From the sequence record DRR723986_9837: 62,961 nt of DNA; one strand, written 5' to 3'. Numbering within the stretch: the stretch's first letter is position 1; every line of letters starts with the position of its first letter. Shown here piece after piece: positions 3,699 to 62,863 of this stretch. Both the position numbers and the translations under genes were made by a program. The notes beneath the pieces were generated by a model. It did no database searches and was not told the origin of the DNA. It worked only from the letters and a program-made list of their open reading frames with translations.

Positions 3699-4295
3699 CT
3701 ACAGCCGCCAGACGCAGAAAGCAATCTGCGAGAAGTGAGGCTCAACCGGGCCGCGAGCATACTCGCAGGAACCCGAGCGAGGTGGTTGGACTGAAGTCGC
3801 AACATCAACGACACAGACAATGCTGAGCGTCAGTACGTCTCGCAACTCCGTGGCAGGCGAGCCCGGTACGGGTGCATTGAATGGCTCGGGAGCCATGATG
3901 CAATTGCATGCCGCCGCGATTGCCGCCAAATCAGTGGCTTTAACCTGCGCAGCGCTTTCGCATGATGTTTGCTTGGGGTGTCCAAGCAGGGACGCTTGAG
4001 GATCCGGGCCTTCTTGCAACTCCATTCCATCAAATGGATCGTCGGCAAAAGTCGCCGCATGGTGCTCCTCTTCACCGTGTCCGCAGCAACTGCCGTCATC
4101 TTTCGTGGCTTCACCACTGCAACAGGGGCACTTGACGGTTTCCGATTGCACTTTGCAACAACCGCAACCTTGGCACTTATATCCGGTCGAAACTCTATCG
4201 GAACAGTCCTGCTGAAGTCCGTACGCCAAGCTCGGCTGCATCGTTACGGCGACGATGAGTAAAAGATTGACGGCGATGTGGGTTGGACGGGCCAT
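3699..4295 (-). CDS. Cys-rich exported leader protein L1, upstream of cusBA
   Basis: Signal-like N-terminus, Cys clusters (CQGCGCC, CPCC, CNC), and C-terminus QPP..ARGP..FCVWRL*. Same architecture as four other leader ORFs in the window. Confidence 0.7.
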   Translation of the reverse strand: MARPTHIAVNLLLIVAVTMQPSLAYGLQQDCSDRVSTGYKCQGCGCCKVQSETVKCPCCSGEATKDDGSCCGHGEEEHHAATFADDPFDGMELQEGPDPQASLLGHPKQTSCESAAQVKATDLAAIAAACNCIMAPEPFNAPVPGSPATELRDVLTLSIVCVVDVATSVQPPRSGSCEYARGPVEPHFSQIAFCVWRL

Positions 4296-6186: not shown

Positions 6187-6789
6187 TCATTCCCAACCGA
6201 GCTTTGCTAACTCTTGGCGAAGCTCTTTTCTTGCGCGGTTCAATCGTGAACCAACAGTGCCCTCAGGGATGCCGACCGCTTTGGCGATCTCCTGATATGA
6301 CAGGCCACGCTGTTCCTTCAGCAGCAAAACGGCTCTGAGTTCTGGTTCCAGCCGAGACATGGCGGTTTCAAGTAGTTCAGCCTCCTCGCTTGGTCCGATG
6401 GGGTCGGGATCGTTTGTTTCTGGTTCGGCGAGAAGTGGAGCGGTTGAGCGTCGCTTGCTGCGGCGAAGGTGCTGCAAGGCTTCATTTGTTGCCAGCCGGT
6501 ATAGCCACGTTTCGAGTTTCGACTGGCCGTTGAACTGGTCGAGCTTGCGAAACATAGTCAAAAATACGTGCTGCGTTAGATCGTCGGCATCCTGCCTGCC
6601 GACCATACGGACCATCAAGCCGTAGACGTGGTCGCTGCATTGCTCGTAAAGCCGCTGCATCGCGCTGCGATCACCTGCGAGACAAGCATCGACCAATTGC
6701 TGTGTGGTAGCAATCGAATTCGACCGGCGAATCGTTGAGTCAACGTTCTGTTGGCTTGCTTCATCCAAATGCATGAACTCCGGTGTCAT
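6187..6789 (-). CDS. ECF (group 4) sigma factor
   Basis: Region 2 DADDLTQHVFL..F.GQSKLETWLYRLATN and region 4 GLSYQEIAKAVGIPEGTVGSRLNRAR. Confidence 0.93.
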   Translation of the reverse strand: MTPEFMHLDEASQQNVDSTIRRSNSIATTQQLVDACLAGDRSAMQRLYEQCSDHVYGLMVRMVGRQDADDLTQHVFLTMFRKLDQFNGQSKLETWLYRLATNEALQHLRRSKRRSTAPLLAEPETNDPDPIGPSEEAELLETAMSRLEPELRAVLLLKEQRGLSYQEIAKAVGIPEGTVGSRLNRARKELRQELAKLGWE

Positions 6790-7252: not shown

Positions 7253-7281
7253 TTGACTCCGAAGCGTCGTTGGCCGATAAT
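7253..7281 (+). promoter_or_regulatory. sigma70-like promoter for the L2-czcBA operon
   Basis: TTGACT (7253-7258), 17-nt spacer, GATAAT (7276-7281), 40 nt upstream of ATG 7322. Confidence 0.5.
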
Positions 7282-7321: not shown

Positions 7322-7708
7322 ATGTTCTTCCGTTTCATTCACCTGCTGACGTGCCTAACCGTGCTGGTTTGTCCAGCGATGGGTGGGACGTGTTGTGCAG
7401 ATGAGGACGATTCTAGGGTTGAACGTGGAGGCTGTGAGCATCATTGCTGCAGTGATGCGGATGGGGAACAAGCTCCGGTCGCTCCTGATTGTCCTGAACC
7501 GTGCCATGATTGTTTCTGTGCGGGGGCCTTGCCTCCGGGGTTCAATGCGTCGGTTGAACTGACGGATATGGTGGACACGCTCGCGATTGTTGCTGTCAAT
7601 GATTTGGCAGCGACATCCGTCACTCAGCGTCTCGAATTTTCTTCACGAGACGAATCGCCTCCGCATGGGCGAACGCTCCTAACGACTTATTGCAGGTTCC
7701 TGCTGTAA
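7322..7708 (+). CDS. Cys-rich exported leader protein L2
   Basis: MFFRFIHLLTCLTVLVCPAMGGTCCA..CEHHCC..CPEPCHDCFC..ESPPHGR..YCRFLL*. Start moved to ATG 7322, downstream of the promoter. Confidence 0.72.
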   Translation: MFFRFIHLLTCLTVLVCPAMGGTCCADEDDSRVERGGCEHHCCSDADGEQAPVAPDCPEPCHDCFCAGALPPGFNASVELTDMVDTLAIVAVNDLAATSVTQRLEFSSRDESPPHGRTLLTTYCRFLL

Positions 7709-7844
7709 GACGCTCTTTTGGCCTTTTTTTGGCTGCACTTCGTAGTGACTTTGGTTGCTTCGTGCTGCGCTGCTTGAGAACGGCCCGGTCGTTTGCTTGG
7801 GAACAAGCATCGTTTGAGCGTCACTCTTTCTTACAGCGGATGCA
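7691..7844 (+). promoter_or_regulatory. Predicted RBS-sequestering RNA stem between the end of L2 and the czcB ribosome-binding site
   Basis: GCTGTAAGA (7702-7710, includes the L2 stop TAA) is the exact reverse complement of TCTTACAGC (7829-7837). TCC/GGA and TGCA/TGCA extend the stem. GACGCTC (7709-7715)/GAGCGTC (7816-7822) is an inner pairing. The downstream ATG is at 7850. Confidence 0.6.
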
Positions 7845-7849
7845 TCACC

Positions 7850-9508
7850 ATGTCGGATGTCATGACTTCGCCGAAGGTCTCGGCAGAACCCATACCGGTC
7901 GATTCAGCGATCGACCAACAACCCACGCCCGATAGCGAGTCAACAGCAGCGGTGCGACCGCGAAACTCGCGTTTTCGGCGAGTGATACTGGCGATGGTCG
8001 GGTGGATTCCGTCGGTCTTGGTCGTCGCCGGGCTGGGAGCGTTGGCTTGGTATGGCCATCACAATGAATGGAAGTTGCCGCGTTTTGCGGCCACACCTTC
8101 ACCCACAATAACGGGGCCAGCGTGGTGCGACAGTCATGGAGTACCGGAAGCGGAATGCATCAATTGCGTTCCGGGTCTGATTGAAGACACGCCGAAGCTG
8201 ACGTTTTGTGATGTTCACGGCGTTCATGGCTGTGTGCTGCATGATCCATCACTCGCCGAGACGAAGTCACCTGCCGAAGTTACCGACAACGATCTTGCCC
8301 GAGCGGAACGGGCACTGACGGTTCGTCCTCGTCGAGAAAACTTGGCACTCAGTCAATTACCGGGTTCGCGAATTCAATTTGCTTCGCTCGATGCCATGCG
8401 GAGTGCAGGCGTTGACGTGGAACCAGTGCAGCGGCAGGCAATCATCGAAAGTGTCGAGACGGCGGGTGAAGTTCGCTACGACGCAACCAAGACAGCTCAA
8501 GTGTCTCCGCCTGCCGACGGAATTGTGAAGCAAGTGCGGGTGAATGTCGGTGATTGGGTGGAGGCCGGGCAGGTGTTGGCGGTTATTGATTCCGAGAAGG
8601 TGGGACGCTTGAAGTCTGAGCTTCTTTCTGCGTTGTCTGACGAGCGGCTGAAGCAGGACGCCGTTCGGCGCATCGAGCCGCTTGCCAATCGCAACGTCAT
8701 TCCCGGTAAGCGGTTGCTGGAAAGCCAGACTGAGCTTCAGCAGGCGACGTCGTTGGTGGAGAAAACCGTTCGGTCCCTCAGCAATCTTGGTCTGTCGGTT
8801 CATCTGGAACGCCTGCGATCACTTCAGCCGGAACAGGCGAAGGACGCCGTTCGCAAGTTGGGCACGGAGCAGATCGAGGAGCGGGACAGCGACAATCTGA
8901 TTGTGGTGATCGCCCCGTTGGCGGGCCGGGTGGTCGAACGTGAAACGGTTGTCGGTGAAGTCGTTGTTCGCGGAACTCAAATGTTTCGGCTATCCGATAC
9001 ACGAACGGTCTGGCTTGATCTTCGTGTGCCAGCCGAAGAAGCCTCGCTTGCGAAAATGGGACAAGAAGTTCGCTACCGTCCTGATGGACAAGCGACAGAG
9101 CATCGCGGCAAAGTCATTTGGATTAGTACGGACGTTGATCGGCAGACTCGAACTGTACGAGTGCGAGCGGAGCTTGAGAACGCAGACGGCAGTCTTCGCA
9201 ATGAGTCATTCGGATTGGGCCAGATTGTGCTGCGAGACGAACCGGATGCGATCGTGGTGCCGGACTCGTCGATTCAATGGGACGGCGAAAACACGCTGGT
9301 CTTTGTTCGCGACAAGCGATTCTTTGAAAAAGACCGACCGAAATTCTTTGTGGCTCGCTCGGTTCGCGTGGGAGTCAAGCAGGACGGGTTTATGGAAACT
9401 ATTGCGGGCGTGTTGCCGGGTGAAGTGGTCGCGTCCAGTGGCAGCGATGTGCTGCGGGCACAATTGCTGAAAAACAATTTGGGTGCAGGCTGCACCTGCG
9501 GTCACTGA
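7850..9508 (+). CDS. czcB: CzcB-type RND periplasmic adaptor with an N-terminal Cys/His metal-binding module
   Basis: TM anchor, WCDSHGVPEAECINC..FCDVHGVHGCVLH, MFP motifs (APLAGRVVER, TRTVRVRAEL), C-terminal GCTCGH. Start at ATG 7850. Confidence 0.85.
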   Translation: MSDVMTSPKVSAEPIPVDSAIDQQPTPDSESTAAVRPRNSRFRRVILAMVGWIPSVLVVAGLGALAWYGHHNEWKLPRFAATPSPTITGPAWCDSHGVPEAECINCVPGLIEDTPKLTFCDVHGVHGCVLHDPSLAETKSPAEVTDNDLARAERALTVRPRRENLALSQLPGSRIQFASLDAMRSAGVDVEPVQRQAIIESVETAGEVRYDATKTAQVSPPADGIVKQVRVNVGDWVEAGQVLAVIDSEKVGRLKSELLSALSDERLKQDAVRRIEPLANRNVIPGKRLLESQTELQQATSLVEKTVRSLSNLGLSVHLERLRSLQPEQAKDAVRKLGTEQIEERDSDNLIVVIAPLAGRVVERETVVGEVVVRGTQMFRLSDTRTVWLDLRVPAEEASLAKMGQEVRYRPDGQATEHRGKVIWISTDVDRQTRTVRVRAELENADGSLRNESFGLGQIVLRDEPDAIVVPDSSIQWDGENTLVFVRDKRFFEKDRPKFFVARSVRVGVKQDGFMETIAGVLPGEVVASSGSDVLRAQLLKNNLGAGCTCGH

Positions 9509-9532: not shown

Positions 9533-12500
9533 ATGCTCACTCGCCTAATTGACCTATCACTACATCATCGGTTCGCCGTCTTACTCGGTGTGCTGGTACT
9601 CATTGCCGGCGGCGGCTACGCTCTCAGTCAGCTTGATGTCGATGCGTTTCCCGATACGACGCCGATCATGGTTCAGGTCAACACGACTGCACCAGCATTG
9701 TCGCCGGAAGAAATCGAACGCCAGATCACCTATCCAATCGAGCAGTCACTTAGCGGCTTGCCGTCACTGGAAAACATTCGCTCGGTCTCGAAGTACGGCT
9801 TCTCGCAGGTCGTCGTGACGTTCGAGGATGGCACAGACATTTACTTCGCCCGACAGGTTGTCGGTGAGCGGCTGGCAACCGTGGAGCTTCCCGGTGGGGT
9901 GAGTCGTCCAAAGATGGGACCGGTGGCAACGGGACTCGGCGAAGTTTTTCATTACGTGCTGACCTATCCGGGCGTGGACTTCACGAAGCTGCCAGAGTCT
10001 GAGCGGATGCGAATGCTGACCGAGCTTCGCACCACGCACGATTGGGTGGTCAAACCACAACTGCGAACTGTCGCGGGCACCGCCGAAATCAACAGTTGGG
10101 GCGGTTACGAAAAACAGTTTCAAGTTCGCATTGATCCGGCGGGTTTGGTGTCGCGGGGGCTGACGTTTGGTGAAGTTGTTGATGCATTGCAGGAGAACAA
10201 TCGCAATGTTGGCGGTGGGAATGTCGATCGTATGGGCGAGATGTTGCTCGTTCAGGGGTTGGGGCGCACGACTGACATTCCACAAATTGAAAACATTGTC
10301 ATCAAGGCGAGCGATGGTGTGCCGGTACGAATTCGTGATGTAGCGACCGTCGCAGTCGGCCATGAGATTCGACGCGGTGCAGTGACAGCGGACGGCAATG
10401 GTGAAGCTGTCATGGGGCTGGGCTTCATGTTGATGGGCGAGAACACGCATCAGTACACCGACGCACTCAAAAGCAAAGTCGAAGAGATACAAGTCAACCT
10501 GCCAAGTGGCATGACGCTGGTCACGATGTATGACCGCACGGAATTGGTCGATTCCGTGATCGACACCGTTCGCAAGAATCTGTTTGAAGGCGGGTTGCTC
10601 GTTGTGGCCGTGCTGTTTTTCTTTCTCGGCAACCTGCGAGCCGGTCTGATTGTCGCATTGGCGATTCCTCTTTCGATGCTCTTTGCCTTCACTGGGATGT
10701 GGCGTTTCGGAATTGTCGCCAGTCTGTTGAGTCTCGGTGCGATCGACTTTGGGTTGGTCGTTGATAGTTCGGTCGTGATGGTCGAGAACTGTGTGCGACA
10801 TTTGGCAATGGCCAATCCTCTGGGGCGGAGTCGGTTGGAGAGAATTCGCGACGCGGCAGTTGGAGTTCGCGGGCCGACAATGTTCGGCGAACTCATCATT
10901 ATGATCGTCTATCTGCCGATCCTGACGCTCGAAGGCATCGAAGGAAAGATGTTTCGCCCGATGGCGCTGACGGTCATTTTTGCCTTGGCCGGTTCGATGC
11001 TGCTTTCAATGACGTTAATGCCGGTGCTGGCCAGTCTGCTGCTGCCCAAGAATATGAGTCATCGCGAGCCGCTGCTCGTACGAATCCTCAAGCGGCTCTA
11101 CCGCCCGGTGTTGCACTTCACGATGCACCAGAAGACAGCCATTATCGGATTCGCGGTGGCTGTGCTGGTAGTCGCATTCGGCATGATTGCTCCGAACCTC
11201 GGCACCGAGTTCATGCCACAACTTTCGGAAGGCTCGGTTGCAATCAACGTAGTACGTCTTGCCGGGACTCAACTTGATGAGTCGATGCGTTTCAACACGC
11301 AGATGGAAAAGGCGCTTCTGGACGAATTTCCAGATGAAGTGGCCCATGTCTGGAGCCGCATCGGCTCGGCAGAGATTGCCACCGATCCAATGGGACTCGA
11401 ATTGACTGATGTGTTCATCACGCTCAAACCGCGCGACGAATGGAAAAAGGCATCCACACAAGCTGAACTGACGTCGTTGTTCGAGCAGAAGCTGCGAACA
11501 CTTCCCGGCCAGCGACTCGCCTACACGCAGCCCATCAAGCTGCGAATGGACGAACTGGGAACCGGTAGTCGTAGCGACATTGCAGTCAAACTCTACGGCG
11601 ATGATTTGGATACGCTTGCCGACAAGGCCACTGAAATCGAGCGAGTGCTGATCGATGTGCCCGGTTCAGCGGATGTCGGTGCAACTCAGTTGACCGGGCA
11701 GCCGATGTTGCAAGTGATAATCAAGCAGAACGAAATCGCTCGCTACGGTATCCCGGCCTCCAGCGTCTTGGACTTGGTCGAAGCCGTTGGCAATCGACCT
11801 GTTGGCGACGTATTTCAAGGACAGCTTCGTTTTCCGCTGACCGTTCGACTTCCTGACGAATACCGTGACGACCCGGAAAAGATCGCCTCGATTCCGGTGA
11901 CGACTCCACGCGGCGAGCAGATTCCGCTTGGGCGATTGGCCGAAGTGAAGTTCACCAGTGGCCCATCACAGATTGCCCGCGAATGGGGGCAACGCCGAGT
12001 CACCGTATCCGTCAATGTACGAGGCCGCGATGTCGGCAGCTTCGTTGCAGAAGCGGAGAAAAAGATCGCAGAACAGGTGACACTGCCCTCGGCAAGATAC
12101 CACGTTGAATTCGGCGGACAATTTGAACACATGATTCAAGCCCGGCAACGGTTGTTCATCGTTGTGCCGGTCGCATTGGTGCTGATCTTTTCGCTGCTGT
12201 ATGTGACCTACGGAAACGTCATCGACACCGTGAGAATCTTCACCGGCATTCCGTTCGCGTGGACCGGCGGAGTGATCGCGTTGTGGCTGCGAGACATGCC
12301 ATTCTCTATTTCTGCGGCAGTTGGTTTTGTGGCCTTGTCCGGCGTTGCGGTGCTGGATGACATGCTGCTGGTTTCCACGATTCGGCAACTACGCCAACGC
12401 GGTCGGGATTTGGAATCTGCAGTCGAAGAAGCGGCGTTGACTCGGCTTCGGCCTGTGTTGATGACAACGCTGGTGGCAGCGTTGGGATTTGTCCCGATGG

Positions 12501-12745
12501 CCCTCAGCACTCGAATGGGTGCCGAAGTTCAGCGACCGCTCGCAACCGTCGTCATTGGTGGTGTTATCAGTGCGATGGTGATGTCGTTGCTGGTCCTGCG
12601 AGTGCTTTACATGGTATTTCAAAGTCCATTGGGTTCTGGGGATGAGACCCCGCAGAAGATCAACGGCGAACAGGTAGATAGTGAGACATTCAGCGAGAGT
12701 TCCACTCAAAGGCAACCGAGTCGTTTCGGTGCCAACGCTCGCTGA
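9533..12745 (+). CDS. czcA: CzcA-family heavy-metal efflux RND permease
   Basis: DAFPD, TM4 AIDFGLVVDSSVVMVEN, RLRPVLMT, GAEVQRPLATVVIGG; 1070 aa. Confidence 0.93.
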   Translation: MLTRLIDLSLHHRFAVLLGVLVLIAGGGYALSQLDVDAFPDTTPIMVQVNTTAPALSPEEIERQITYPIEQSLSGLPSLENIRSVSKYGFSQVVVTFEDGTDIYFARQVVGERLATVELPGGVSRPKMGPVATGLGEVFHYVLTYPGVDFTKLPESERMRMLTELRTTHDWVVKPQLRTVAGTAEINSWGGYEKQFQVRIDPAGLVSRGLTFGEVVDALQENNRNVGGGNVDRMGEMLLVQGLGRTTDIPQIENIVIKASDGVPVRIRDVATVAVGHEIRRGAVTADGNGEAVMGLGFMLMGENTHQYTDALKSKVEEIQVNLPSGMTLVTMYDRTELVDSVIDTVRKNLFEGGLLVVAVLFFFLGNLRAGLIVALAIPLSMLFAFTGMWRFGIVASLLSLGAIDFGLVVDSSVVMVENCVRHLAMANPLGRSRLERIRDAAVGVRGPTMFGELIIMIVYLPILTLEGIEGKMFRPMALTVIFALAGSMLLSMTLMPVLASLLLPKNMSHREPLLVRILKRLYRPVLHFTMHQKTAIIGFAVAVLVVAFGMIAPNLGTEFMPQLSEGSVAINVVRLAGTQLDESMRFNTQMEKALLDEFPDEVAHVWSRIGSAEIATDPMGLELTDVFITLKPRDEWKKASTQAELTSLFEQKLRTLPGQRLAYTQPIKLRMDELGTGSRSDIAVKLYGDDLDTLADKATEIERVLIDVPGSADVGATQLTGQPMLQVIIKQNEIARYGIPASSVLDLVEAVGNRPVGDVFQGQLRFPLTVRLPDEYRDDPEKIASIPVTTPRGEQIPLGRLAEVKFTSGPSQIAREWGQRRVTVSVNVRGRDVGSFVAEAEKKIAEQVTLPSARYHVEFGGQFEHMIQARQRLFIVVPVALVLIFSLLYVTYGNVIDTVRIFTGIPFAWTGGVIALWLRDMPFSISAAVGFVALSGVAVLDDMLLVSTIRQLRQRGRDLESAVEEAALTRLRPVLMTTLVAALGFVPMALSTRMGAEVQRPLATVVIGGVISAMVMSLLVLRVLYMVFQSPLGSGDETPQKINGEQVDSETFSESSTQRQPSRFGANAR

Positions 12746-13145: not shown

Positions 13146-15290
13146 GTGAGTATGGAGAACAACAAAAGGGAAATCGAGCTACGCATTTACGGGATGGATT
13201 GCGCTGAGGAGGTCACACTCCTCAAGCGTGAATTGATTCCGCTATTGGGCGATGAAGATCGACTCGGTTTTGATTTATTGAATGGCAAGCTGTCCGTTGA
13301 TACGTCTTCACTCGACGTATCACGAACGGATGTGCTGGCTGCAATCGAACGAACCGGCCTGAAGTCCGCGCCTTGGCGGGACGATGGTGCGGCGAGTAAC
13401 GACCTTTCGTTCTGGCAAAAGCATCAGCGTTCGATCCTGACTGCGGTGAGTGGTCTGTTCGGACTGAGCGGGTTGGTTGTGCAGCTGTGGACGGGTGAGT
13501 CGGAATCGGTGCCGATTGCGTCGATCGTGCTTTACAGCGTCGGCATCGTTGCAGGTCTGCTGATGGTGCTTCCGAAAGCGTGGCGATCGCTTGTCTCATT
13601 GCGTCCCGATATGAACCTGTTGATGTCAGTCGCGGTAATCGGAGCGGTGTTGATTGGCGAATGGTTCGAGGGGGCGACGGTTGCGTTTCTGTTTTCGTTC
13701 TCACTGCTGCTTGAGTCATGGAGCGTAGGCCGGGCACGTCGAGCCATCGCTTCATTGATGGACTTGTCACCGCCGACCGCTCACCTTCGGGATGAAGCGG
13801 GCGAAGTGAAGGACGTGGCTCCCGCGGATGTGCCTGTCGGTTCCACAGTCATTGTGCGTCCCGGCGAAAAGATTCCGCTTGATGGTCGAGTTCTCAATGG
13901 AATCAGCGGCGTGAATCAGGCACCGATTACCGGTGAAAGCGTTCCCGTTGAAAAGGAATCTGGTGATGAAGTGTTTGCCGGAACTATCAACGGCGACGGC
14001 TTGCTGGAGATCGAAACGACCAAAGCTGCTGACGATACGACGCTGGCTCGAATCATCAAGATGGTTGGTGACGCCGGGTCCAAACGTGCTCCGTCGGAAA
14101 AGTGGGTTGAGAAGTTCGCAGCCGTCTATACGCCAGTGGTGATGCTTGTCGCCTTGCTGATGCTGGTGATTCCACCGCTGGTTTTCGAGGGAGATTGGTC
14201 CGTCTGGCTTTATCGCTCGCTCGTGTTGCTAGTCATCGCATGTCCGTGTGCCCTCGTGATTTCAACGCCCGTGAGCGTCGTGGCTGCATTGGCGGCGGCT
14301 GCTCGCAACGGCGTACTCATCAAAGGTGGAGTGTTCATTGAAGTCCCCGCCCACCTCAAGGCGATTGCGATGGACAAGACCGGCACATTGACACGGGGAG
14401 AACCGGCTGTTGTTGACGTGGTGCCGATGAACGGACATGACGAAGCAGAGCTACTTTTGCGAGCCGGTGCTTTGGAACTCAACAGCAACCATCCTTTGGC
14501 TCGTGCGATTGTCGAAGAAGCCAAACGTCGGGAATTGCAACTCGTCGCCGCCGACGAGTTTGAAACCATTCAGGGCAAAGGAGCGGCAGGAATCATCAAC
14601 GGCAAGCCGTATTGGTTGGGTTCACATCGCTACTTGGAACAGCGTGGACAGGAGACACCGGAGGTTCACGAGCAGTTGGAATCGATGACGGAAGCGGGGC
14701 GAACCGTGGTGGTGGTTGGAAACGATGAACACGTTTGCGGTTTCATCACACTGGCCGATGCCATCAGAGACGAATCCCGCGATGCGATTCGTCAACTTCA
14801 CGAAGCAGGTGTAGAGCAACTCGTGATGCTGACAGGTGACAACAAAGGCACGGCCAAAGCGATCGCCAAAGAAGCAGGCATCGACGAAGTTCACGCCGAG
14901 CTATTGCCTGAAGATAAAGTCGTGGCGGTCGAACGGCTGGTCAAACAATATGAACAAGTCGCAATGATTGGCGATGGCGTCAACGACGCCCCAGCACTTG
15001 CTCGTGCGTCACTCGGCTTGGCGATGGGAGCCGCCGGGAGCGATGCGGCCATCGAGACGGCTGACATTGCTTTGATGTCCGATGATCTTTCCAAGCTACC
15101 GTGGCTAATTCACCATTCAAGACGAACGCTCAGCATCATTCGCCAGAACATCGCGTTCTCACTCGCCGTTAAAGCCCTATTCGTCGTGTTAACGTTCGCT
15201 GGCTTCGCATCACTGTGGGCCGCGATCGCAGCCGACATGGGAGCCTCACTGCTGGTTATTGGGAATGGTCTGCGACTGCTCAAATCGTAA
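13146..15290 (+). CDS. zntA: P1B-2 type Zn/Cd/Pb-transporting P-type ATPase
   Basis: N-terminal GMDCAEE, TGES, TM6 CPC, DKTGT, SNHP, GDGVNDAP, TM7 Lys (QNIAFSLAVK) and TM8 AADMG. Confidence 0.93.
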   Translation: MSMENNKREIELRIYGMDCAEEVTLLKRELIPLLGDEDRLGFDLLNGKLSVDTSSLDVSRTDVLAAIERTGLKSAPWRDDGAASNDLSFWQKHQRSILTAVSGLFGLSGLVVQLWTGESESVPIASIVLYSVGIVAGLLMVLPKAWRSLVSLRPDMNLLMSVAVIGAVLIGEWFEGATVAFLFSFSLLLESWSVGRARRAIASLMDLSPPTAHLRDEAGEVKDVAPADVPVGSTVIVRPGEKIPLDGRVLNGISGVNQAPITGESVPVEKESGDEVFAGTINGDGLLEIETTKAADDTTLARIIKMVGDAGSKRAPSEKWVEKFAAVYTPVVMLVALLMLVIPPLVFEGDWSVWLYRSLVLLVIACPCALVISTPVSVVAALAAAARNGVLIKGGVFIEVPAHLKAIAMDKTGTLTRGEPAVVDVVPMNGHDEAELLLRAGALELNSNHPLARAIVEEAKRRELQLVAADEFETIQGKGAAGIINGKPYWLGSHRYLEQRGQETPEVHEQLESMTEAGRTVVVVGNDEHVCGFITLADAIRDESRDAIRQLHEAGVEQLVMLTGDNKGTAKAIAKEAGIDEVHAELLPEDKVVAVERLVKQYEQVAMIGDGVNDAPALARASLGLAMGAAGSDAAIETADIALMSDDLSKLPWLIHHSRRTLSIIRQNIAFSLAVKALFVVLTFAGFASLWAAIAADMGASLLVIGNGLRLLKS

Positions 15291-16240: not shown

Positions 16241-16651
16241 GTGTTTCTCCGTATTGCCACATCAATGCTCTTGGCTGCACTGCTGATTCTTCAATCAGTT
16301 GTGCCGTGCTGTGCCATCGGCAAACTGCTGGCAGGTGGCGGTAGCTCGGAAGCTGCGGCAACACACGTCGCTCATCCTTGTTCTTGTTGCCCATACTCAC
16401 AATCGCAACAGGAACCAGTTCCTTCGGACGATGGCCATTTACCGGATGGCAAGTGCCCATACTGTGGCGGGCTGCTTTTTCATTCGGGTTTGGATGATGC
16501 GGCACCGATATCCAAAGGTCACTTGGTTTTAGCGCTGCTCGGCGATGCACCGAAACATATGAGCGAGCAAGCTCCTGTCTTCCGACAAATATTTCAGCGA
16601 CAGGTTCTCGGGCTACCATTTCTGAACACCGGTATGCGCCTTCTGATCTAG
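16241..16651 (+). CDS. Cys-rich exported leader protein L3, upstream of tolC
   Basis: Probable GTG start; [42 protein letters not shown]. Confidence 0.65.
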
Positions 16652-18490: not shown

Positions 18491-18958
18491 ATGTTTCACA
18501 GCATCATCACCATCCTGACGACGGCAGCGATTGCGTTACACGCAATGCTGGGATGCTGTGCGCACCATGATCATTCATGCTGCGAAACGCACGGGTTGAC
18601 GGCTGTGATTCATCAGTCGCACGATTACGATTCTCACGGACACGAACATCATCATCACGATGATGATGTAGACTCGACCGGCGAAGACGCTGAGAACGAC
18701 TGCGGCCATCAGCATCGACATGACGGTGGTCAGCCTCACGGATGCGATGAAGGAGCTTGCAACTTCACGTCTGTGCAGCGAACAAGCGATCTCGAACTGA
18801 TGCTGACATTCGCAATGTGGTGCCAGAGTCTCTGCGATGTGGCTCACACGGACGCAATGGACAGTTTGGTCGCGTTGAACTTCGCAGCCGAATCGCCTCC
18901 CGATCCGCTCTCCAAATCGGGTACTGCACGCGCCATTTCTCAGGTCTGGCGGCTGTAA
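18491..18958 (+). CDS. Cys/His-rich exported leader protein L4
   Basis: MFHSIITILTTAAIALHAMLGCCAHH, His tract, HGCDEGACNF, ESPPDP..SQVWRL*. Confidence 0.72.
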   Translation: MFHSIITILTTAAIALHAMLGCCAHHDHSCCETHGLTAVIHQSHDYDSHGHEHHHHDDDVDSTGEDAENDCGHQHRHDGGQPHGCDEGACNFTSVQRTSDLELMLTFAMWCQSLCDVAHTDAMDSLVALNFAAESPPDPLSKSGTARAISQVWRL

Positions 18959-31443: not shown

Positions 31444-31514
31444 AATCGAATTGAGTCATAAACCGGGCCGATTACGCCCGAGCATAAACGTACGAATTGG
31501 TTGGAATCAGACGA
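31431..31514 (-). promoter_or_regulatory. Predicted hairpin pairing the L5 stop region with the czcC start region
   Basis: Perfect 11-bp inverted repeat TCGTCTGATTC (31431-31441)/GAATCAGACGA (31504-31514), with an inner CGGGC/GCCCG stem. One arm holds the L5 stop codon; the other touches both candidate czcC starts. Confidence 0.65.
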
Positions 31515-31875
31515 GAATGACGGTGAATTTCTGGGAACGCAGATGCGCCGAGATAGTGTTCCCCGAGATTGTAAACAGCCGTTCGTCCACTCGTACACGG
31601 TAAGGCTGTTCCGGCTCCTGACGAACGGCTAGGACCCCGCCTGGTGCAGCAGCTTGGTTCTCGAGGGAATTTCCGCTGACCGCAATGTTTGTTTCGCGTG
31701 CAGGGCAGGTGCAACCTTCGCACTCGCAGAGTTTATGCTCGTGAACGGGCGCCTCATTTTGCCACTGATCAGCGTGAGCGACATGAGGCGCGCAAAGTAT
31801 GTGCGAAGATCCCACCGCAAGGAGAAGAAAAACCAAGAAAATTGCCGTCAGGCGCTGGAAGAAACAGTCGCACAT
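31507..31875 (-). CDS. Cys-rich exported leader protein L5 (CzcI-like position)
   Basis: Hydrophobic N-terminus ..HILCAPH, CECEGCTCP, C-terminus FTVILV*. First gene before czcCBA. Confidence 0.68.
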   Translation of the reverse strand: MCDCFFQRLTAIFLVFLLLAVGSSHILCAPHVAHADQWQNEAPVHEHKLCECEGCTCPARETNIAVSGNSLENQAAAPGGVLAVRQEPEQPYRVRVDERLFTISGNTISAHLRSQKFTVILV

Positions 31876-41162: not shown

Positions 41163-42197
41163 TCAAACTGAAATGCGTTCCACGATATTTCTTGTGACCC
41201 TCCGGTGTCTACGGTCGTAGAGTCGCGTTGTTCGTGGGTCAGCATGTCCTGCGAGGTTCTGAACGTCCTCAAGGGGAACACCCTGGCTGAGGAGATCAGT
41301 GATGGTAGTCACGCGAAACGAATGAGGTGAGAGGCGGTTTGACAGCCCGGCACCTCGCATCCTGCGTTTAACCATTCTGCCCATATCTCCGGCGGTCATG
41401 CCATTTCTGGTAAGTTCCTTTGTTCTGCGGATCGTCGTCCGGAATAGCGGGGTGGCCTTCTCTTCTGGGTCTAGGCCACTGCCATCGATATACTCTTGAA
41501 TGAACAGCTGCAGGTCGTGACGAACGGGAATCTCTCGCTGTTTGCCGCCCTTCTCGCGAAAGCGCAAACAATGCTGTTCACCGATATCGTAAAAGTCACC
41601 GAATCGAAGTTTGGCGATAGCCCCCACTCGAGCTGCGGTATAGATGAGAATTCCAAGAATGGCGTGATCACGAAGCCCGACAACTGAGCTCGTATCTACT
41701 GAGGCCATCAGCCGTCGACACTGATCAATCGTAATCTCCGGAGTCTTGCCCTCAATGACCTGCAGACGCTCTCCGCGCACCGATGCCGCAGGATTCAGGA
41801 CGACCACATGGCGATTAACCAAGGTGTCAAAGAAATGCCTCAGGCCTGAAAGATGGAGCTTCTTGGTGCTCGCTGCATAGTCCAAGCCATCAAGATATTC
41901 CCCCACGTCCCGCGGCGACACATTCGCCAAGTCTTTTCCCTGCGCATCGCAATGTTCCAAGAACTGCCTGATTGCGCGCTCGTATGCGCGTCGAGTGTTT
42001 GGATTGCGTAGCTTGCCAAAGATAAATTCCTCCCAGGCAAACCTCGCCGCCGCGCCGCCACGTTCGACCATGGCCGGAAGTTTATCCCCATCTGGTTCGG
42101 CTGTTCCGACATCGAGTGCTACATCAATCGGCACCATTTCAGTCAGCTTTGTATGCTCGGCTATGCTTGCAAGCTCTGGCGTATTCCTGTGTTTCAC
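41163..42197 (-). CDS. Tyrosine recombinase (Xer/resolvase-like)
   Basis: SAM-like N-terminal domain (NPNTRRAY). Catalytic R (TAARVG), K (EKGGK), HxxR (PHSFR), GH and Y (TTRLYDRR). Confidence 0.92.
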   Translation of the reverse strand: MKHRNTPELASIAEHTKLTEMVPIDVALDVGTAEPDGDKLPAMVERGGAAARFAWEEFIFGKLRNPNTRRAYERAIRQFLEHCDAQGKDLANVSPRDVGEYLDGLDYAASTKKLHLSGLRHFFDTLVNRHVVVLNPAASVRGERLQVIEGKTPEITIDQCRRLMASVDTSSVVGLRDHAILGILIYTAARVGAIAKLRFGDFYDIGEQHCLRFREKGGKQREIPVRHDLQLFIQEYIDGSGLDPEEKATPLFRTTIRRTKELTRNGMTAGDMGRMVKRRMRGAGLSNRLSPHSFRVTTITDLLSQGVPLEDVQNLAGHADPRTTRLYDRRHRRVTRNIVERISV

Positions 42198-42299
42198 TGA
42201 GTATCCAACAACACTTCCGAGAGGCCAAGCAGATGATTCACAGATAAGGCGTACCGGAAATAGATTTCTATGAGTTTTTTGCGATCTGAGAACACCTCG

Positions 42300-42339
42300 A
42301 AGTTAATGCATGATAACGTCCTTTGTCGAGCATTAACTT
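42300..42339. other. dif/res-like recombination site upstream of the tyrosine recombinase
   Basis: AGTTAATGCATGATAA-CGTCCT-TTGTCGAGCATTAACT. The 16-bp inverted arms match at 13/16 positions around a 6-bp spacer. Confidence 0.62.
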
Positions 42340-61586: not shown

Positions 61587-62798
61587 CTATTGAAAAACTG
61601 AAGCGAGTGCTGCCCGCTGCTGATTTGGAAACAGGTGCCGATAGCGTCTTCGCATCGCATCGGTTTGGTGACCTACCCAATCATCAATCATCCGCTGATC
61701 CACTCCTGCAGAAGCGCAGTTACTAATAAAGCTATGCCTGAGGACATGCCAGCCGCGAAGGACTTGCCATTTAGAGTTCGCAACTGTACGACTGAAGTAG
61801 CAGCTCCCTTGGTCAAACGACAAACCATCTCCGGTGCGACTAAAAGTGAATCTCCCGGCTGGACGCTGCTCGAACCACTCAAGGAGTATGGACTCAAGCT
61901 GTGGGGAGATGGGAACGCAACGGGTTGAGCGCTGCCCGCGAACTCGCTTCTTCTCTCGTAGAACAATCTGACTACCCTCGAGATCGATATCCTGTATCTG
62001 CGAGCGAAGCATCTCGCTTCGGCGAGCTCCAGTGTAGGCAGCCATCGCCAGCATGGGGTAGATAAATCCCGGTCGGTTCATGGCTTTGACGTCGGCCAAA
62101 AACGCTCGTACCTCGTCTTGGTTGAGGTAGACGCAATCCCAGTAGTCCTGGGCCTCCTCTTCGCTCAGGCCCCCACGCTCAACAAGGCGTTCAATCTCAT
62201 CCCATGTCTTAAACGGCGGCTTTTCATCGACTTTGCCGTAGCGGAGCCGAGACTTTCTAGGAAGCTGCGTTTTTACATATCCTGATTCCTGAGCCCAGCT
62301 CCAGACAGTCGTTAGAGTGGCTAGCTCCTTCTTAATTGTCGTCGGGCTTAGTGGTTTGCCCCGAAGCCCTTTCTCTTGGCTGCGGGCGTTTACGTAAGCC
62401 TGAAGGTGGTCCAATGTGAAGCTTGATGGCCGTGTTCGGACACCGAGCAGACGCTTTAGGTGGCTCATATGGGTATGAAGCATCTTCCAAGTAGAAGTCT
62501 CGATAGCGGACTCGGGGATACTCGTCATGTAGAGATTCAGCAGCTCTCCGAGCAGCGGTGCTTTCTCAAGCTTCGGCTTCTGCTTGAGCACTCCAGAGGT
62601 CAGCAGAGCAGTAGGAATATCGGCTCCAGCCTCTAGCACCAAAGTACCGAGTTCAACACGTCTGAGATTGTCCTCGAGTCGAGCCAATGCGAGGTTGGCT
62701 GCGCTGGCTTGATTAGTCTTGAGAGACCGAGCAAATTTCTGACCGCCGTAGCGAAAGACAACGCGGTACGTTCCGTTTCTGAGTTCGAGGGATGCCAT
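61587..62798 (-). CDS. Tyrosine integrase (phage/ICE type, with an N-terminal arm-binding-like region)
   Basis: N-terminal YRVVFRYGG..RSLKT; TGARRSE, HVLRH, GH, RRY. Confidence 0.92.
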   Translation of the reverse strand: MASLELRNGTYRVVFRYGGQKFARSLKTNQASAANLALARLEDNLRRVELGTLVLEAGADIPTALLTSGVLKQKPKLEKAPLLGELLNLYMTSIPESAIETSTWKMLHTHMSHLKRLLGVRTRPSSFTLDHLQAYVNARSQEKGLRGKPLSPTTIKKELATLTTVWSWAQESGYVKTQLPRKSRLRYGKVDEKPPFKTWDEIERLVERGGLSEEEAQDYWDCVYLNQDEVRAFLADVKAMNRPGFIYPMLAMAAYTGARRSEMLRSQIQDIDLEGSQIVLREKKRVRGQRSTRCVPISPQLESILLEWFEQRPAGRFTFSRTGDGLSFDQGSCYFSRTVANSKWQVLRGWHVLRHSFISNCASAGVDQRMIDDWVGHQTDAMRRRYRHLFPNQQRAALASVFQ

Positions 62799-62863
62799 GG
62801 TTCACATTTTCCGTAGGAGGTACGGAAAGGACCAGCGATACAAACCCAACGTGACCTGAGTGC

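Follow-up and report, generated by a model that had tools for sequence, protein, structure and literature searches.

Can a small upstream gene with no recognised family govern translation of the metal-efflux operon behind it? The question is raised by a 62,961-nt stretch of sequence record DRR723986_9837 (the window), in which an open reading frame (ORF) that we call L2 ends 141 nt upstream of czcB, the gene for a CzcB/CusB-type periplasmic adaptor. A sequence-only reading of this DNA had proposed that the RNA around the L2 stop codon pairs with the czcB ribosome-binding site (RBS), and that a ribosome dwelling on the last L2 codons would melt this stem, as in SecM/MifM-type control. Judging from its homologues, L2 is a conserved cysteine-rich leader gene of planctomycetes. 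We put at about even the chance that it is a CutF-like metal-sensing gate, in which a ribosome held at or just before the L2 stop codon keeps the stem open and the efflux operon is translated. Three properties of the family support such a gate: a conserved pairing that shifts register, a fixed C-terminal tail, and a fixed distance from a cysteine cluster to the stop codon.

Predicted pairing between the leader stop and the czcB start

We examined 67 sequences, duplicates included, which gave 28 distinct loci with a close L2 homologue directly before czcB and an assignable ATG. L027 and L030 were dropped as near-copies of L026, and L013 was kept although its czcB frame appears shifted soon after the start (a broken gene or an assembly error), leaving 26 loci in 11 groups. 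Pairing was scored in full-ensemble folds between a stop zone (-18 to +15) and the czcB start region, and a locus with at least six expected pairs was called positive. The stem was present in 19 of the 26 loci, with a mean of 12.5 pairs as against 1.8 in shuffles of the intergenic region (14 each; Wilcoxon test over the 11 groups, p=0.007). The predicted stem on which the sequence-only reading depended is thus kept in most orthologous loci, although classical covariation is thin. Indeed, the partner of the start region (-14 to -6) shifts register across groups, lying at -10 to -1, -7 to +2, +4 to +15 or -15 to -7 from the stop, suggesting that re-invention does more than classical covariation to preserve the pairing; groups A and C exchange U-A for C-G at two positions within one register. 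A locus's own arms paired better than all foreign arms in 7 of the 26 loci, ranked within the top tenth in 12 and outdid shuffled targets at p<0.05 in 13. The folding method does not give the stem for free, since only four of 23 distant homologous loci show it (p=0.14; 27 were inspected, and L035, L054, L061 and L064 were dropped as unclear or duplicate), a count on which we reject the idea that the wider L2 family generally has the stem. The distant L2 homologues (L034-L063) head MacB/FtsX ABC permease, HMA-domain, PAP2, protoglobin histidine kinase or distant czcB genes.

In the window itself, the paired strings named by the sequence-only reading are all present: GCTGTAAGA (7702-7710), which overlaps the TAA at 7706-7708, is the exact reverse complement of TCTTACAGC (7829-7837), TCC (7698-7700) faces GGA (7838-7840), TGCA recurs at 7691-7694 and 7841-7844, and GACGCTC (7709-7715) faces GAGCGTC (7816-7822). 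The 9-bp outer and 7-bp inner helices built from them cannot coexist, however, because positions 7709-7710 belong to both, and the minimum free energy (MFE) structure instead has 7+7 pairs with an 8-nt bulge. AGCGGA (7835-7840) does end 9 nt before the ATG at 7850, but its Shine-Dalgarno (SD) pairing is weak (-3.3 kcal/mol, scored against an anti-SD 9-mer). The SD is weak in most orthologues too, and several carry GCAGAAG without GGA, so "initiation region" is a safer term than "RBS". When positions 7660-7870 are folded, the stem is part of the MFE structure, but this one sequence gives only a modest signal (z=-1.56, matched by 14 of 200 shuffles); shuffling the 160 nt 2000 times yields a perfect 9-nt inverted repeat in 3% of cases. 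Stem probability swings between folding windows (0.53, 1.0, 0.10, 0.05 and 0.17 in five of them) because a local hairpin at 7684-7711 competes, and the two states of the window sequence are computed at -86.2 kcal/mol (local hairpin) and -85.0 kcal/mol (long-range stem). This hairpin was rejected as a family-wide feature (p=0.087 over all groups; no double-sided change). The TCC/GGA register is found only in the window strain, and close relatives pair at -10 to -1 with no bulge. The arms of the window locus pair at -22.8 kcal/mol, compared with -13.4±3.0 kcal/mol for foreign arms, none of 36 of which was as good. Among the orthologues, L001, L004 and L022 have strong stems; the ensemble of the window locus shows one of the weakest.

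Two further possibilities that would have undercut the sequence-only reading were not borne out, namely that czcB starts elsewhere or has its own promoter in the gap. The ATG at 7850 is conserved, with Met at the same place in orthologues; the alternative TTG starts at 7793 and 7814 were rejected, being unconserved, and in-frame stops cut off upstream TTG starts in several orthologues. A promoter scan of the window sequence gave no sigma70-like site between 7708 and 7850.

The leader peptide and a modelled ribosome at its stop codon

L2 has 23 close homologues, and its family is represented here by 101 cluster representatives. In two planctomycete families L2 matched 45 of 401 and 21 of 301 genomes, and in a phylum-wide sample 3 of 401; the three named sources of L2 homologues are planctomycete or "hypothetical", and one homologue is named "Secreted protein". 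L2 has no match in Pfam at E<=0.01, and the DUF2946 profile matched none of 24 L2-family members at E<=10. The LpqS model (NF052429, actinobacterial copper homeostasis) aligns with L2 residues 39-124 at 18.6 bits (E=0.0017), under its 35-bit cut-off. Among ESM Atlas neighbours of the homologue P0002, the nearest clusters are unnamed ones from Acidobacteriota; the named neighbours (DUF8199, DUF6769 and DUF6660, at 0.93-0.94 with low shared-feature counts) are leads only. The sub-threshold LpqS match and the Acidobacteriota clusters suggest that this leader type may reach beyond planctomycetes. An AlphaFold model of L2, made from a shallow alignment, is mostly unfolded (mean predicted local distance difference test, pLDDT, 43.5) and was too poor for a fold search; it places a low-confidence helix at residues 2-16.

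Two parts of the peptide are held at fixed distances from its end. The last Cys of the cluster lies a median of 64 residues from the C-terminus (interquartile range 63-65; 99 of 101 representatives), with about 62 in L2 itself. In hits scored without the tail, this distance was 55-69 (21 measurable of 22), with a standard deviation of 2.2 compared with 6.5 for an N-terminal spacing. When residues are numbered back from the C-terminus, with no alignment, 84 of the 101 representatives have G at -13, 71 have R at -12, 80 have L at -2 and 85 have L or I at -1; G also stands at -13 in 14 of the 22 hits scored without the tail. Tail codons vary synonymously across the family, suggesting that part of the constraint acts on the peptide. 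The stop codon is constrained as well: orthologous L2 genes end in TAA or TAG in 28 of 28 cases, whereas TGA ends 55 of the 95 long ORFs that neighbour them and 10 of 23 leaders at the distant loci. Such TAA/TAG-only stops fit the specificity of release factor 1 (RF1) and hence RF1-specific termination.

The family does not carry the proline motifs of known arrest peptides near its end. None of the 101 representatives has RAPP or RGPP in the last 25 residues, and none has PP within the last 15. PP stands at -16/-15 in L2 and within the last 20 residues of 42 representatives, and P is common at -18 to -15.

We modelled the ribosome as a footprint from -12 to +13 around the P-site codon, and computed the cost of opening czcB from -15 to +3. 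The mean cost was 9.3-9.9 kcal/mol with the ribosome 20-12 codons before the last codon, and 6.8-7.6 kcal/mol at 5-0. For the window locus, the probability of the outer helix was 0.08 on naked RNA, 0.77-1.0 with a ribosome 16-5 codons from the end, and 0 at four codons or fewer. In this model, dwell on the last L2 codons or at termination can open the stem. A stall at PP or GR was rejected as the opener on geometry, because modelled ribosomes open the stem only when about 4-5 codons or fewer from the stop, and those at PP or GR leave it shut. The melting proposed in the sequence-only reading is therefore reproduced by the model, but SecM/MifM is not the closest precedent: proline arrest motifs near the stop are absent from all 101 representatives, the genes downstream of L2 encode CzcB, CzcA and a P-type ATPase rather than Sec/YidC components, and CutF is closer.

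In CutF of Rhodobacter capsulatus (cutFOG), as far as the accessible parts of the reports describe it, a stem hides the next start and a ribosome dwell is proposed to open it, and CutF-like genes frequently precede CusB/CzcB and OEP genes (PMC9973294; bioRxiv 10.1101/2025.02.05.636593). L2 likewise is a small first gene with a hydrophobic, putatively Sec-type N-terminus and a Cys motif, ahead of a metal-detoxifying gene with a start predicted to be stem-hidden. In keeping with the rules for CutF-like genes, it is shorter than 150 residues (128), has a same-strand neighbour within 1000 nt (the 141-nt gap) and carries a CxxxC/CxxC motif, a putative metal site. The start-hiding stem is predicted in 19 of 26 L2 loci, opens with the modelled ribosome at the last codons only, and is marginal at the window locus. 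L2 nevertheless lies outside the CutF-like set, whose filter, in the available text of PMC9973294, includes PP within the last 15 residues, because the DUF2946 profile does not match it and it has neither RAPP nor a PP in that range; it thus differs from CutF in lacking the C-terminal polyproline. Its cluster stands 62-64 residues from the C-terminus, as opposed to 45 for the CutF motif, its stem is built on the last codons and the stop codon and encloses a three-way junction of 141 nt, and a pause-like element is present. L2 would work like CutF, as a probable proline-free variant, yet falls outside the DUF2946/CutF-like sets.

Other described systems share some of these features, again as far as the accessible text of each report goes. 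CruR of Bordetella pertussis (DUF2946; PMC9426467) has a long intergenic region, a conserved spacing from Cys motif to tail, a nonpolar C-terminus and a proposed polymerase pause in the gap; unlike L2, it has RAPP, heads an importer and is switched off by copper through Rho, and a start-hiding stem is not reported for it there. Stop-codon arrest peptides have been demonstrated by toeprinting (PMC10987492). Those "-stop" peptides are like L2, as we propose it to work, in combining an exported leader, a stem over the next start and arrest with a stop codon in the A site, but they precede Sec/YidC genes, monitor secretion, have other tails and have no Cys cluster (PMC10987492). CzcI of Cupriavidus metallidurans, described as a protein that acts in the periplasm, resembles L2 by description only (PMC10127602, PMC9973294). 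A literature search found no description of this planctomycete leader family, most subscription papers lying outside its scope, and the supplement text of PMC9973294 that was searched (8,054 characters, without the protein lists) contains no planctomycete names.

A pause-like element in the gap and the competing accounts

A short motif, CTGCGC, recurs in 20 of 26 gaps, compared with 3.1 expected. CTGCG itself occurs in 21 loci, its T 49-63 nt downstream of the stop, and 19 of these have G at -10 with variable sequence in between. G-N7-CTGCG is found in 20 of 26 loci (2.7 expected); the opposite strand has it in one, and moving the G to -9 or to -11 leaves two and three. These 20 loci fit the G-10, Y-1 and G+1 of the consensus elemental pause as given in the available part of PMC11077087, and, to judge by this resemblance, the motif is a likely pause signal at which RNA polymerase (RNAP) would pause, near 7766. 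The G at -10, the last five transcribed bases and G+1 are identical in the his pause RNA (PMC5842316). By contrast with the his and consensus pauses, in the portions of PMC5842316, PMC11077087 and PMC6336406 to which we refer, the L2 motif has no consistent upstream hairpin and no t-3 g-2; it also stands outside the leader ORF, about 57 nt beyond the stop, and a conserved CGC follows. A pause hairpin upstream of the motif was rejected, being inconsistent across loci. The motif is positioned after the leader arm has been transcribed and before the czcB arm; the sequence-only account of the stem had included neither this element nor the competing local hairpin. Among the distant loci, 9 of 23 carry G-N7-CTGCG as well. 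Two further leader families, collected only after the pattern had been noticed, have it in 9 of 25 and 12 of 27 loci (expected 3.6 and 3.3; pooled, 21 of 52 against 6.9, with none on the opposite strand). The loci of these two families are related among themselves, and in one of them a plain tally of the -10 base at every occurrence did not reach significance.

We propose that a gate of the CutF kind would work as follows. A single transcript would start upstream of L2, and the nascent peptide would be exported via Sec, such that the Cys cluster, about 62 residues from the end, would be periplasmic when the ribosome arrives at the stop. Polymerase would pause near 7766, with the leader arm made and the czcB arm not yet made, letting the ribosome arrive. 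Metal binding would then lengthen a termination dwell set by the GR...CxxLL-stop tail. In the computed folds, only a ribosome about 4-5 codons or fewer from the stop removes the stem; with no dwell, the stem would close and czcB would go untranslated, and Rho polarity may silence czcA and the ATPase gene as well. A more ambitious version strikes us as doubtful, though worth stating: L2 would define a proline-free class of arrest peptide widespread in planctomycetes, GR-x7-C/S-x-x-L-L/I-stop, stalling at RF1-read stops upon periplasmic metal binding, with a his-like pause about 57 nt past the stop timing the choice between local hairpin and long-range stem. If true, this would be a full attenuator-style switch read from outside the cytoplasm.

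Several observations weigh against a CutF-like gate. The peptide's export and metal binding, the stall, the pause and the direction of control are all deduced from sequence, and the 11 groups were drawn by eye, with no tree. Seven of the 26 loci have no stem in the ensemble (the window, L002, L020, L021, L031, L038 and L039), and the window locus folded without a ribosome has just 1.7 expected stem pairs; its start region costs 6.2 kcal/mol to open whether the RNA is ribosome-free or has a ribosome at the stop, and the mean gain in opening across loci is only 2-3 kcal/mol. Randomising synonymous codons was beaten at p<0.05 in just 7 of 26 loci, and the best partner of the SD-zone 12-mer is the stop in 6 of 26 loci and 2 of 11 groups, a weak result (p=0.17). 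Among eight close loci, the 13 pairs of the outer helix are 90% paired with zero double-sided changes, and the score of the whole structure is matched by 11 of 500 shuffles. The pause-like motif is without the t-3 g-2 of the consensus, and its register was chosen on the orthologue set itself. Lastly, TAA and TAG could be kept for pairing instead of RF1 termination, and the nonpolar C-terminus could be a protease tag.

Other arrangements have to be set beside the gate. If each finishing ribosome briefly melted the stem, czcB would merely follow L2 translation, with metal control, if any, at the promoter. Such plain long-range coupling requires only the stem and the geometry and suits the absence of a proline arrest motif near the stop (n=101), but we think it unlikely because it leaves unexplained a stop-anchored tail kept through synonymous changes and register shifts, the fixed distance from Cys to stop, and the pause-like motif. 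To CruR/TnaC-type Rho attenuation we assign the same low standing. Here the ribosome on the stop would shield pyrimidine-rich RNA behind it, the pause would be the point of Rho release, and the stem would be secondary. The gap is long, as in CruR, and has a pause-like site; its opening 25 nt are 33% C, 30% T and 23% G, rho is found in 5 of 5 related genomes, and the pause-like motif also occurs in leader loci that have no stem. The gap is, however, predicted to be structured and has equal C and G overall (27% each), unlike a rut site, and a stem kept in 19 of 26 loci also speaks against attenuation as the main output.

The logic could also be reversed, with a ribosome stalled upstream at PP or GR locking the stem shut until metal frees it to run to the stop and open czcB. 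Modelled ribosomes 16-5 codons from the end of the window leader do lift the stem to 0.77-1.0 by removing the local hairpin, P is common at -18 to -15 with PP in the last 20 residues of 42 of 101 representatives, and CruR is released by copper, according to the available text of PMC9426467. But PP is missing from the other 59, the best-conserved residues (-13 to -1) would still be unmade at such a stall, and the local hairpin is not significant across groups, which makes this arrangement somewhat less likely again than the two preceding ones. The least probable account, to our minds, is that L2 is a secreted metal-binding protein acting in trans on the pump, with the stem damping czcB or incidental. 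A precedent exists in CzcI, encoded upstream of czcCBA and described as a periplasmic pump quencher (PMC10127602, in the part available), and the stem is marginal at the window locus. Set against this, the L2 model is of low confidence and mostly unfolded (the pLDDT of 43.5 coming from a shallow alignment), homologues head several unrelated operons, and the stem stays with the stop codon whichever register it takes.

The locus and its wider setting

The features discussed above are listed in the table together with those of the surrounding operon. Hexamer pairs resembling the sigma70-like promoter precede most orthologous leaders, as read by eye. By eye, too, GATAAT lies about 6 nt before the likely leader ATG in L018, L024, L026, L027, L030 and L031, which suggests leaderless or nearly leaderless transcripts in these six loci.

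Table. Features of the L2-czcB region and downstream genes in the window
Feature	Position	Strand	Basis
Sigma70-like promoter TTGACT-17-GATAAT	7253..7281	+	10/12 bases match; 41 nt 5' of leader ATG
L2 leader ORF	7322..7708	+	128 amino acids, Cys-rich, no Pfam family
Hydrophobic N-terminus, likely Sec signal peptide	7322..7387	+	Kyte-Doolittle 1.3-2.4 over residues 1-26; conserved in alignment
Cys cluster C57-x3-C61-x2-C64-x-C66, putative metal site	7490..7519	+	C61, C64, C66 invariant in 24/24
Tail G116-R117...C124-x2-L-L, putative termination-stalling sequence	7667..7705	+	anchored to stop
Competing local hairpin over last codons and stop	7684..7711	+	89% paired in 8 close loci; no double-sided change
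Outer helix 5' arm (last codons and TAA)	7696..7708	+	predicted fold
Inner helix 5' arm GACGCTC	7709..7715	+	98% of cells paired, 8 close loci; one double-sided change, A-U to G-C
Long interior hairpin of three-way junction	7720..7785	+	17+8 pairs, 2 with double-sided changes
RNAP pause-like element	7757..7770	+	G7757 (-10), T7766 (-1), G7767 (+1), then CGC
Short interior hairpin	7790..7812	+	97% paired, 1 double-sided change
Inner helix 3' arm GAGCGTC	7816..7822	+	predicted fold
Outer helix 3' arm, czcB initiation region with weak SD	7829..7844	+	predicted fold
CzcB/CusB-type periplasmic adaptor (czcB)	7850..9508	+	Pfam HlyD_D23; TIGR01730
CusA/CzcA-family heavy-metal RND transporter	9533..12745	+	TIGR00914, 1202 bits, above cut-off
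Cadmium-family heavy-metal P-type ATPase	13146..15290	+	TIGR01512 and TIGR01525 above cut-off

Rfam covariance models, including that of the NiCo riboswitch, gave four chance matches (E 1.7-7), none within the gap, and the contigs from two metatranscriptome runs, in which word shares were small, were short and divergent, with none spanning the region from the L2 stop to the czcB start. Genes for RND, OEP, P-type ATPase and ECF sigma proteins are densely clustered at positions 1259-41000, with an ECF sigma gene (6187-6789) divergent from L2, and ORFs at 41163-42302 (-) and 61587-62801 (-) resemble tyrosine recombinases by eye; together these are probably a metal-resistance island. Elsewhere, the genomes G001, G004, G692, G715 and G998 each carry a second Rho-like gene in addition to the main rho (440-478 bits, under the TIGR00767 cut-off).

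Other candidate leaders lie in the same cluster. A Cys/His leader at 31507-31875 (-) precedes an outer-membrane efflux gene (ATG 31431), and its stop region is predicted to pair over the next start, with 18.7 expected pairs, a value reached by 1 of 40 shuffles. Leader-like Cys/His-rich ORFs at 3699-4295 (-), 16244-16651 (+) and 18491-18958 (+) precede czcB-like or OEP genes; they have hydrophobic C-terminal ends, two of them ending in VWRL, and no Pfam or NCBIfam match. No clear stem is predicted over the start that follows any of these three, and the pause-like motif is found in the loci of 3699-4295 and 18491-18958. In the locus L028, a second small Cys-rich leader-like ORF, rather than czcB, lies 78 nt after the stop of the L2-type leader, a possible case of tandem leaders.

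To our knowledge, metal sensing by a nascent exported peptide has been shown for two copper systems only, both of them proline-based. The L2 family would extend this form of sensing to a planctomycete efflux operon of the CzcBA/ZntA type, with another arrest chemistry and probably at termination. The CruR model assumes a polymerase pause whose position is not mapped in the accessible text of PMC9426467, and the motif conserved behind L2, which recurs behind two other leader families of the same island, offers a sequence candidate for such a pause.

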